A DNA stretch of 11,954 nt, taken from the UHGV virus genome UHGV-2190786. One strand, given 5' to 3'. Of this stretch, positions 9,032 through 11,954 are shown one piece after another. Position 1 is the first letter of the stretch. Every line of letters starts with the position of its first letter. The notes under the pieces were generated by a model that did not search any database, was not told the origin of the DNA, and was given only the letters and a program-made list of their open reading frames with translations. The translations under genes were made by a program, and so were the position numbers. This DNA comes from a virus.

Positions 9032-10666
9032 TTAATTTAAGGAATAAATTCCAATTGTTTTGTTTTCTTGTTTAACTACTAATTTGATAATTTTGTTAAT
9101 ATTTATTCCATAAACAGACATGCCAATATATAGTCTGCCATTAATGTTTACTGGCGAAGGCTTGAAGTCTTGAGCTTCGCTTTCTCCATTTTTAAAAATG
9201 ATACTCAATGAAATACTTTTATCAGCATTAAATTCTCGCTGATCCCCATTTAAGGCAAATGATAAGGTGCAAGGCATAAAACTTTTCGTGTCTGAATAGT
9301 AAAGGGAGAGCAGGCTCTCTCCTTGCAGTTCATTATTTATAACATGGCCAGATATAATGACAGAGTAGTCGAAATCTACCTTTTCAAGTTTTACACTATT
9401 TATGTTGTAATACTTTGAGAAAGCCATTGGGTTGAAAAATTCATCAAACCTATCGTTCGCATTTAGCAACTTACTGAAATAAAAATCAGGCAGTATGGTT
9501 TCACCGATTGAAGACTGCCTTGAATTTAATACAATGGCATCCCTTATCTTATTTTGATAAGAGACGGACTTATATGAATGATAAACGAAATAGTATGATG
9601 TTATAAATAACAACATTAGAGAGGCAATAGACAAAGAATACAAAGACCTTGTGATGATAGATTTATTTTGCGCTAAGTAATTAATAACGAACGATAATGA
9701 CATTAACGAGAAATAGAAACCTCCAGTCCATGACCTTGGAGGTGTGTAAGGAGAGCCAGCAAGAGAAATCAATGCTGTTAATGAGCAAATGAAAAATGCG
9801 GAACTATACAAGGCTTCATTACTTACCAATCTTCCTTTGATGTCACGAAAAACTATTGCTGCTGCAAATATAAATGACAGAGCAATTATTAAGCCAAAGG
9901 TAAGTAAAGGATACATCATCCGTTCTTCAATGTGGTATAAAAACCTTGTTAACAGAGGCCAACTATACCATTGCTGAAAGGACACATCCTGCGCTCTATT
10001 GAAGTTTCCTGGTGATAATATCAGCAGCGCACTTCCTACAAAAACACCAGAGCACAGTAAGCAAATGCTAATAAGGTTCTTTTTGCTTATCAGGAGCGAA
10101 ATAAAAATAATTAATACGCAGAAAAATGAAAGTGCAACAGAGGCGCTTTCATTAGAGCATCCGGCCAGAATCCCTATAAATAAAAGAAATGCTGTTTTAT
10201 ATTTGTTTAAAGAATCTTTCCATTTTAACAGGAAATATAGAAAAGAAACTACAAATAACATAGTTAATGAATAGTTGGCACTGCCAACTATCCAAAAAAC
10301 AGACTGCCCAAGATTGGGGTTAAAACACCAAAACACCATGAAAATTACTGGAAATACTGTTTTGACTTGGTTGCTTCCAGTAGCGGCATATGGTAGTGCT
10401 GATATAAAATAAATAATGACAACGATCAGTAGCGAATTAATTGCAGAGCGAACATAATAATCCTCAATATGTAATAGAATGTTTGATGTGTAATCAGCTA
10501 TAAACCTACCACTCCATGATAAATAGTGAGCTATGTGGTTAGTGAAATCTAAGCTCAATAAAGAATAGCTAAAATCATCAGAATGCAACGGAGTGTATAC
10601 TGCTATTGCATACACTAAAGCAAATGCAATGATGTAAATTACACTTACATTTGTGTTAATCTTCAT
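9032..10666 (-). CDS. gtrC: GtrC-like serotype-specific O-antigen glucosyltransferase: polytopic membrane protein, about 544 aa
   Basis: Its ATG (10666-10664) overlaps the gtrB stop (ATGA). The protein has many hydrophobic segments followed by a more hydrophilic C-terminal region. The gene is strongly AT-rich compared with its neighbours. It is third in a gtrA-gtrB operon, the usual place of the type-specific gtr gene. The track's N-terminal extension to 10912 would overlap gtrB by 250 nt and is rejected. Confidence 0.75.
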
Positions 10667-11595
10667 TTTGCTTCCCTTGTACTGTTTTTCTTGATTATAT
10701 ACCGTGGCCTTGCTTTGGTTTCCGTATAAATCCTTCCTATGTACTCCCCAAGAACACCAATTCCAATTAACTGCACCCCACCAAGGAAAAGAATTGACAC
10801 TAGAAGTGAAGGGTACCCTCTCACAGGATTTCCAAAAGCCAACGTGTCCAGAATCATCCATGCGCCATAAATGAATGAGAAACCTGCAACAACCATCCCA
10901 AGATATGTCCATATCCGTAGCGGCACTGTTGAAAAACTGGTTATCCCCTCAAGGGCAAGGTTCCACAACTTCCAGCCATTAAACTTAGAGCTTCCCGCTA
11001 CACGTTCAGCACGAGCGTACTCAACTACCTCTGTGTGCCCACCAACCCAACTGAGAACACCTTTCATAAACAGGTTTCTTTCTGGTAATTGACGTATATT
11101 CTCAACAATATCACGGGACATGAGGCGAAAATCGCCTACATTTTCCTCAATTTTAGGGTTGCTTATTTTATTGTGGAGCTTATAGAACCACTCAGCAGTT
11201 TTTCGCTTCAGACGTCCATCTGTAGAGCGGTCTGAACGCTTTGCCAACACCATATCAGCACCTGCCTGCCACTTTTCAAGAAGATGAGGAATAACCTCAA
11301 TCGGGTCTTGCAGGTCAACATCAATTGGAATCACGGCATCGCCAGTTACATGGTCTAACCCTGCAAACAATGCTGGTTCTTTACCAAAGTTGCGTGTAAA
11401 TGACAGCGGAACAACTAGCGGATCAGAAACAGCCAGAGCGTTAATTATTGACTCCGTAGAGTCTTTGCTACCATCATTTATAAAAACAATTTCTACTTCA
11501 TATGGCTTCAACTCTTCGAATTCACGTACCGTTTTATAAAAAATTGGTATCGCTTCTTCTTCATTGAAGACAGGAACGACCAGTGATATCTTCAT
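10663..11595 (-). CDS. gtrB: GtrB, bactoprenol (undecaprenyl-phosphate) glucosyltransferase, GT2 family, 310 aa
   Basis: The N-terminus [16 protein letters not shown]...INDGSKDST and the DVDLQD motif are typical of GT-A fold family 2 enzymes, and two C-terminal hydrophobic segments fit a membrane anchor. Length and gene order match GtrB. Its start overlaps the gtrA stop (ATGA). Confidence 0.9.
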
Positions 11596-11954
11596 TTCGC
11601 ATCCCTAAAGACAATGAACTTTGAATAGACGAAACCGCACACCAGGCTGATGGCGGAGAAAGTGATAAGAGTGACCATCGGGGGAAGTGCGCATCTGTCA
11701 GCAGCCCACCCGACGACAATACTCAAGGTTCCCATGAACCCGACATATAACATGTATCGCATCGTTGTAGTCGATGCTTTGAATGTGAATTTTGCATTCG
11801 CGAAGAAGCTAAAACTCACAGCCACAACGAAACCTGCGAAGTTTGCCAGAGCCTGATTGGTATGCGCGGCATAGATACATACACCAAAAACCACCCAGTG
11901 TATAAGTGTGTTCAGAACACCAATCGTGGTGTACTTTGCAAATAGCTTTAACAT
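11592..11954 (-). CDS. gtrA: GtrA, small membrane flippase-type protein of the O-antigen glucosylation system, 120 aa
   Basis: [60 protein letters not shown]... is near-identical to my recollection of P22/Shigella-phage GtrA. The ATG lies on the last three bases of the window, so the promoter is outside it. Confidence 0.9.

Follow-up and report, generated by a model that had tools for sequence, protein, structure and literature searches.

A gtrABC operon with a PF19528-type GtrC at the attachment-site end of a P22-like prophage

Organisation of the gtrABC operon

The virus genome UHGV-2190786, a stretch of 11,954 nucleotides referred to here as the window, carries at positions 9032–11954 three minus-strand reading frames in tandem, gtrA, gtrB and gtrC, which a first-pass annotation made from the sequence alone had taken for a lysogenic-conversion operon. 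That assignment is borne out by the Pfam families of the three products (GtrA_DPMS_TM, Glycos_transf_2 and DUF6056) and by the setting, a P22-like prophage in which gtrC is convergent on the tailspike gene. The genes and the junctions between them are as follows.

11592–11954, minus strand: gtrA, 120 residues; small membrane protein, putative undecaprenyl-phosphate-glucose flippase
10663–11595, minus strand: gtrB, 310 residues; GT2 bactoprenol glucosyltransferase, uridine diphosphate glucose (UDP-glucose) to undecaprenyl-phosphate-glucose
9032–10666, minus strand: gtrC, 544 residues; membrane glycosyltransferase of GT-C fold, PF19528; the acceptor-specific enzyme of the operon
11592–11595, minus strand: ATGA, overlap of gtrA stop and gtrB start, read in the sequence
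10663–10666, minus strand: ATGA, overlap of gtrB stop and gtrC start, read in the sequence

Both stop/start overlaps had been pointed out in the first-pass annotation. Because each downstream gene begins in an ATGA overlap behind an AGGGA sequence (minus strand, 11602–11606 for gtrB and 10673–10677 for gtrC, with a 6-nt spacer before the ATG in each case), translational coupling across the junctions is plausible. Overlaps of 4 nt are also annotated at both junctions in SfV, between gtrA and gtrB in epsilon34 and SPN9CC, and between gtrB and gtrC in HF4s; judged from these sequences, the ATGA overlaps are conserved gtr anatomy rather than chance. The G+C content is 46.0% in gtrA, 43.1% in gtrB and 33.9% in gtrC, and 48% in the remainder of the window. 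A longer frame of 626 residues starting at 10912, which appears in the open reading frame list through a rule that takes the first start after a stop, was rejected as the true gtrC because all homologues align from the Met at 10666; its extra stretch overlaps gtrB out of frame.

The ATG of gtrA is the final triplet of the window, and the promoter, as the first-pass annotation had supposed, lies beyond the window edge; the promoter region was read in related loci (see below). The locus displays the features of the gtrABC class, namely a GtrA-family gene in first place, a GT2-type gtrB in second and a variable, AT-rich gene for a membrane transferase in third, on the same strand as gtrB and directly downstream of it, in a prophage setting near the attachment site (att) and the tailspike gene. 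We conclude that the operon is complete and intact and occupies the end of a P22-like prophage that is nearest to att.

GtrA and GtrB are conserved proteins, as had been claimed. GtrA matches PF04138 (GtrA_DPMS_TM) with an E-value of 1.1e-13 and is 90% identical to SfV GtrA over 120 residues; GtrB matches PF00535 (Glycos_transf_2) with an E-value of 9e-31 and is 89% identical to SfV GtrB over 307 residues. Since GtrB is so close to its SfV counterpart, glucose is the probable sugar transferred. NCBIfam holds no model that matches GtrA or GtrC, and its matches for GtrB, to PgfS and to ArnC-type polyprenyl-phosphate glycosyltransferases, are all below threshold. At the DNA level, known phages match the gtrAB part alone, and Shigella phages match gtrA and gtrB only.

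GtrC and its protein family

GtrC belongs to Pfam family PF19528 (DUF6056), which it matches with 203.2 bits against a gathering cut-off of 27; the match spans residues 5–429 of the protein and positions 6–441 of the 442 in the model. The family is listed as GT_STM0557_N in another resource, and its typical length and its motifs S-D-D, WSGR and NPNLG are all present in GtrC. An exhaustive HMMER search with GtrC over 1.84 billion representatives returned 1292 clusters, taken at the 50% identity level, at E ≤ 1e-3, and 159 at E ≤ 1e-30.

The first-pass annotation had singled out gtrC as atypical, possibly with an unusual linkage or acceptor specificity, on account of its AT-richness, its length and a hydrophilic C-terminal region. 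The description itself is accurate: the protein has 544 residues, and its hydrophilic tail extends about 180 residues past the membrane segments. All three properties are nevertheless normal for a PF19528-type GtrC, and the gene is not atypical. The protein is indeed longer than GtrV of the Shigella type (417 residues), but not than its own family, in which the best 150 representatives have a median length of 545 residues, with 81% of them between 500 and 600, and the epsilon34 protein has 551. The G+C content of gtrC is 32.1% in epsilon34, 33.3% in SfV and 38.0% in HF4s, and a C-terminal extension stands at the same position in most of 26 aligned family members. It is only beside GtrC proteins of the Shigella type, members of other families, that this one is long.

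By tblastn, six records in the phage collection match GtrC, with no Shigella phage among them. A Salmonella Kentucky prophage fragment and a contig from a Salmonella Infantis genome (31.5%) match best; gene 20 of epsilon34 is 33% identical by this method, and 35% identical over residues 12–460 by BLASTP, and HF4s GtrC is 29% identical by tblastn. The epsilon34 and HF4s proteins are PF19528 members, whereas no Pfam family was found for SfV GtrV, and the third gene product lacks the similarity to the Shigella serotype-specific Gtr proteins (GtrI, II, IV, V and X) that was looked for. Characterised enzymes reach at most 35% identity to GtrC, and none of the characterised converting transferases matches it over its full length, the best being epsilon34 GtrC.

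GtrC forms a distinct cluster at 50% identity, the nearest other representative being 36% identical. The closest relative outside its 90%-identity cluster, P0002, is 64% identical and also 544 residues long; its gene (L077, 90–1724) lies on a short metagenome contig beside an IS3-type transposase and an integrase fragment, with no adjacent tailspike gene. Relatives span Enterobacterales, Burkholderiales, Bacteroidota and Firmicutes, and in 26 of 61 species-representative relatives gtrA and gtrB lie directly upstream in the same order. A literature search on DUF6056 returned a single, unrelated paper. The only novelty here is the particular GtrC sequence; the operon itself is ordinary.

Genes in the gtrC position are heterogeneous, and the family II 'GtrC' of the Salmonella prophage BTP1 is reported to be implicated in O-antigen modification and length rather than glucosylation (PMC4413052). 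That the present GtrC, a PF19528 member, is likewise an O-antigen acetyltransferase or some other modifier is hardly credible.

Predicted structure of GtrC

An AlphaFold2 model of GtrC, built on the family alignment, is confident, with a mean predicted local distance difference test score (pLDDT) of 90.5 and a predicted template modelling score (pTM) of 0.90. It shows about 11 membrane helices, the last ending near residue 362, after which 182 hydrophilic residues form, in order, a long helix leaving the membrane, a short α/β segment still covered by the Pfam model and a β-sandwich at about residues 430–544. A sequence search of the Protein Data Bank with GtrC returned nothing at E ≤ 1, and matches came from fold comparison alone; they include the GT-C-like subunits PIGU and Gab1 of glycosylphosphatidylinositol (GPI) transamidase, with which Foldseek agrees. 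The model therefore predicts a multi-helix membrane core with a GT-C fold. Two features of the protein are placed on the DNA as follows.

10574–10585, minus strand: codons of H28-S29-D30-D31, close behind the first transmembrane helix; acidic motif of the first periplasmic loop, a candidate for catalysis
9035–9379, minus strand: C-terminal immunoglobulin/fibronectin type III (Ig/FN3)-like β-sandwich, residues 430–544, predicted periplasmic

In GT-C enzymes the catalytic acidic residues usually lie in the first extracytoplasmic loop. The predicted structure places D30 and D31 8–9 residues past helix 1. Residues S29, D30, D31, W51, S52, G53 and R54 are invariant in the 26 aligned family members, and N116, P117, L119 and G120 are nearly so; the pattern [HQ]SDD, one of the two most conserved stretches, was picked for the genome scan. 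The S-D-D motif is thus a candidate for the catalytic motif of GtrC. Among the short loops, lysine and arginine occur in those with a predicted cytoplasmic position and in none of those predicted to be periplasmic, a distribution that fits a model in which the N-terminus is inside, the C-terminus outside and the sandwich in the periplasm.

The sandwich is the fastest-diverging part of the protein. GtrC and P0002 are 71% identical over the membrane part and 67% over the juxtamembrane part, against 41% over the sandwich, and the kinship of the C-terminal domain was judged from alignment position and predicted structure. The first-pass annotation had advised a search for C-terminal homologs together with a topology prediction: tblastn of the C-terminal 115 residues against 61 related loci gave nothing at E ≤ 1e-3, and the sandwich does not align with epsilon34 GtrC, for which the BLASTP alignment ends at residue 460; phrog_2009 corresponds to GtrC residues 365–531, and the region is therefore already known among phage proteins. 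HF4s GtrC ends before the sandwich, where the Pfam model ends, and since HF4s lysogens show altered adsorption (see below), catalysis in the family does not as such depend on the sandwich. The domain may plausibly help to recognise the acceptor.

Comparison with known gtr systems

The gtrABC genes of epsilon34 have the same order as those described here, and on the phage map int and attP directly precede gtrA; gtrC runs towards a P22-type tailspike gene, a terminator separating the two, as here. Their GtrC (gene 20, Salmonella GtrC family VIII) is of the same Pfam family and, at 551 residues against 544, of similar length; gtrC is equally AT-rich, and the regulatory region is likewise without a Dam/OxyR signature. 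The two systems differ in the GtrC sequence, which is alignable over residues 12–460 only, in the gtrB/gtrC overlap, 1 nt in epsilon34 against 4 here, in the host, Salmonella group E, and in attP, which resembles argU in epsilon34 as against what we take to be the lambda att core here. Genes 20–22 of epsilon34 were assigned to O-antigen conversion on sequence grounds, and its GtrC was reported to be 30–40% identical to STM0557 (PMC2629481).

In SfV, the gtrA–gtrB–gtrV genes resemble the present operon in the first two products, in both 4-nt overlaps, in a near-identical promoter-proximal sequence and in the AT-richness of the third gene, but GtrV, with 417 residues and no Pfam match, has no detectable similarity to GtrC. 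The gtrABC genes of HF4s, an E. coli P22-like phage of strain E. coli 4s, share with ours a PF19528 GtrC and a 4-nt gtrB/gtrC overlap; the protein differs in having 410 residues and no C-terminal β-sandwich. Lysogens of HF4s show altered phage adsorption and a reported protection from superinfection (bioRxiv 10.1101/2021.06.09.447823). The STM0557–0559 operon of Salmonella Typhimurium (GtrC family III, O12-2) is likened to ours by description rather than by alignment, through the listing of PF19528 as GT_STM0557_N. It adds a 1-4-linked glucose to the O-antigen galactose, converting O12 to O12-2 (PMC13505456; PMC3688519), and it differs in being phase-variable, with four GATC sites and OxyR, against one GATC here.

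Prophage context and distribution

Contig L008 matches the window at 99.85% identity from end to end, and several shorter contigs are 100% identical over the common part. The exact GtrC protein was found on 21 contigs, in which ybhB and ybhC border the prophage. Two exact copies of GCTTTTTTATACTAA flank it in the remnant L007, at 8353–8367 and 15900–15914, none being expected by chance; in L008 the corresponding att site lies at about 8350–8366, just beyond window position 11954, and gtrA is the last prophage gene before the att junction. We take this 15-mer to be the att core of phage lambda, and on that identification a P22-like virion module would be combined here with lambda-type integration. 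At the other end of the operon, and elsewhere, the following features are found.

8991–9012, both strands: terminator-like hairpin AGAGGGCGGCTAGCCGCCCTCT with a 9-bp stem, flagged on both strands by the terminator scan
7167–8987, plus strand: P22-type tailspike gene, 606 residues from the Met of MSDITANV; Pfam Head_binding, E 9e-67
L001 14144–18923, and L014 and L015 7144–11923: tailspike–gtrCBA block elsewhere

The hairpin separates gtrC from the tailspike gene, which is convergent with it, and is common to both genes, with TTTTTTA following it on the gtr strand; the same hairpin site is present in L008, and epsilon34 has an annotated terminator in the equivalent position.

Remnants L006 and L007 lack window positions 3004–7773, a 4.8-kb internal deletion that runs from early in a 470-residue ejection-protein gene (2952–4364) into the tailspike gene, of which the C-terminal part is kept intact; gtrABC is intact in both. 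Among 5426 complete E. coli genomes only three carry gtrC, at 99.3–99.4% identity over the queried span. In these three, the block from tailspike codon 3 to gtrA (window 7175–11954) is 99.0% identical to the window and adjoins intS and a tRNA-Arg gene, in what we term argW remnants: the rest of the phage is gone, dsdC is truncated and the tailspike gene is cut at its 5′ end. All three gtr reading frames are intact in every copy examined, the two contexts differing by four or five amino-acid changes in the product of gtrC, one in that of gtrB and two in that of gtrA. Because the near-identical block occurs at a second site with the rest of the phage lost, the sequences indicate that the tailspike and gtr cassette has passed from one P22-like phage to another with a different integration system, and that it outlives its carrier phage.

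Persistence in decayed prophages, both those with the 4.8-kb deletion and the argW remnants, might suit an operon that is a silent relic without present function. Against this stand the intact frames, the small number of amino-acid changes between contexts and a core promoter sequence conserved with SfV and HF4s; moreover, the retention of gtrABC while neighbouring phage genes decay points to selection. We consider a silent relic very improbable.

Upstream region and expression

As the promoter lies outside the window, the upstream DNA was taken from near-identical loci. The two contexts share an identical 150 bp upstream of gtrA, from which SfV and HF4s differ little; this stretch includes TCGATC followed 17 nt later by TAGACT. 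The ybhB–gtrA interval of L008 contains one GATC, which aligns with the promoter-proximal GATC of the P22-like phage SPN9CC; in SPN9CC the sequence upstream of gtrA is longer by a block of about 80 bp, which carries further GATC sites and is absent here.

In operons of the P22/STM0557 type, four GATC sites within three OxyR half-sites bring about Dam-dependent phase variation, the fourth GATC starting at −33 in the −35 region. Davies et al. described epsilon34-type regions as lacking a phase-variation signature and found that an operon keeping only the promoter-proximal GATC did not phase-vary (PMC3688519). With a single GATC in place of four and no 80-bp block, Dam/OxyR phase variation was rejected for the present operon, which by analogy is predicted to be expressed uniformly.

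A further hairpin, TTAGCGCAAG...CTTGCGCTAA followed by TTTTTTG (8510–8556), lies in L008 about 160 bp upstream of gtrA, past the conserved promoter-proximal sequence but short of the att core. It may shield the operon from transcription that reads through from ybhB.

Function and acceptor

We regard it as highly probable that this is a standard prophage gtrABC operon, which glucosylates one sugar of the host O-antigen repeat. In line with the general gtr mechanism as reviewed (PMC7685785, PMC11194591), GtrB would transfer glucose from UDP-glucose to undecaprenyl phosphate at the cytoplasmic face of the membrane, GtrA would flip the resulting undecaprenyl-phosphate-glucose to the periplasmic face, and GtrC, with its 11 or so membrane helices, S-D-D motif and periplasmic sandwich, would add the glucose to one particular sugar of the repeat. 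The altered O-antigen would change the serotype and block adsorption of phages that use the unmodified form, including those of the prophage's own type, whose tailspike gene is tail-to-tail with gtrC. A promoter a little beyond the window edge would serve all three genes, giving a single transcript that ends at the shared hairpin at 8991–9012.

A possible acceptor is suggested by the host genomes. The three complete genomes with gtrC carry identical wzx and wzy genes of the O107/O117 family (L078 13719–16251; L079; L080), and one of the strains is named O117:H42; the O107/O117 wzy is present in 20 of the 5426 complete E. coli genomes. The O107 and O117 repeat units each have five sugars and differ in one of them (PMC7685785). 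A literature search on O117 together with gtrABC returned a single, unrelated paper on Hafnia. We tentatively propose the O107/O117 repeat unit of E. coli as the most likely acceptor, a proposal to which we give slightly less than even weight.

Several observations weigh against these assignments. Seventeen of the 20 genomes with the O107/O117 wzy are without gtrC. The three that have it share identical flanks and O-cluster proteins, and are therefore probably one lineage, so that the association amounts to about one draw at a probability of 0.004, not three. O107 and O117 are not among the gtr-modified groups listed in the review cited above (PMC7685785). Finally, some family members occur in Gram-positive bacteria, where an O-antigen cannot be the acceptor.

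The last point bears also on whether the operon, though active, glucosylates some other surface glycan, be it the lipopolysaccharide core, enterobacterial common antigen, colanic acid or capsule. PF19528 relatives are found in Enterococcus, Lachnospiraceae and Flavobacteria, all without an enterobacterial O-antigen, and the top PHROG annotation of the neighbouring tailspike is 'colanic acid degradation'. On the other hand, the characterised relatives in epsilon34, STM0557–0559 and HF4s are all tied to O-antigen conversion, gtrC travels with a P22-type tailspike, and a single O-antigen cluster is common to all complete genomes that carry it. We judge another glycan to be an unlikely acceptor, and retain glucosylation of the O-antigen.

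If the O107/O117 unit is the acceptor, a subset of E. coli strains of this type, an avian pathogenic isolate among them, probably carry on their surface an O-antigen with added glucose, which is absent from standard serotyping and from the published O117 structure and could affect phage susceptibility and antibody recognition; it would be a new structure of a familiar kind. A more elaborate possibility, which we hold to be doubtful, is that GtrC makes this undescribed form with the Ig-like sandwich reading the acceptor, and that the sandwich, which is missing from the active HF4s enzyme and defies alignment among family members, is inherited as a matched pair with the receptor-binding domain of the tailspike, which moves between P22-like phages that differ in their integrases. 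A gtrC without an assigned acceptor and linkage is the usual case and no evidence of unusual chemistry, and nothing in this operon challenges the current understanding of gtr systems. The PF19528 GtrC family, with its 1292 clusters, has only a handful of members whose acceptors are known, and the combination of a conserved GT-C core with a hypervariable C-terminal sandwich offers a convenient place to study how acceptor specificity is encoded.

The tailspike and other genes of the window

Over its receptor-binding part, residues 127–606 (window 7545–8984, counting from the Met at 7167), the tailspike shares 67% identity with tail proteins of the Salmonella phages STML-13-1, BRM 13313 and pSC20, whose genomes are 157–159 kb in size. 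On the strength of these sequences, receptor-binding domains appear to be exchanged between small temperate phages and much larger ones.

None of the Rfam RNA families is matched in the window at gathering thresholds. A gene for an Arc/Mnt-type ribbon-helix-helix repressor (Pfam Arc and Repressor_Mnt) lies upstream of the tailspike gene, at 6779–7078 on the minus strand; in contrast to the epsilon34 immI region, neither ant nor arc is present in the interval between the two. Between this mnt-like repressor gene and a gp16-type ejection-protein gene, a minus-strand open reading frame of 161–173 residues (6223–6744) encodes a protein with a lipoprotein-like N-terminus, MKKSLLIIPILLVGC. It belongs to no Pfam family and its sole match is phrog_6067, of unknown function; the product could be a moron or exclusion protein.

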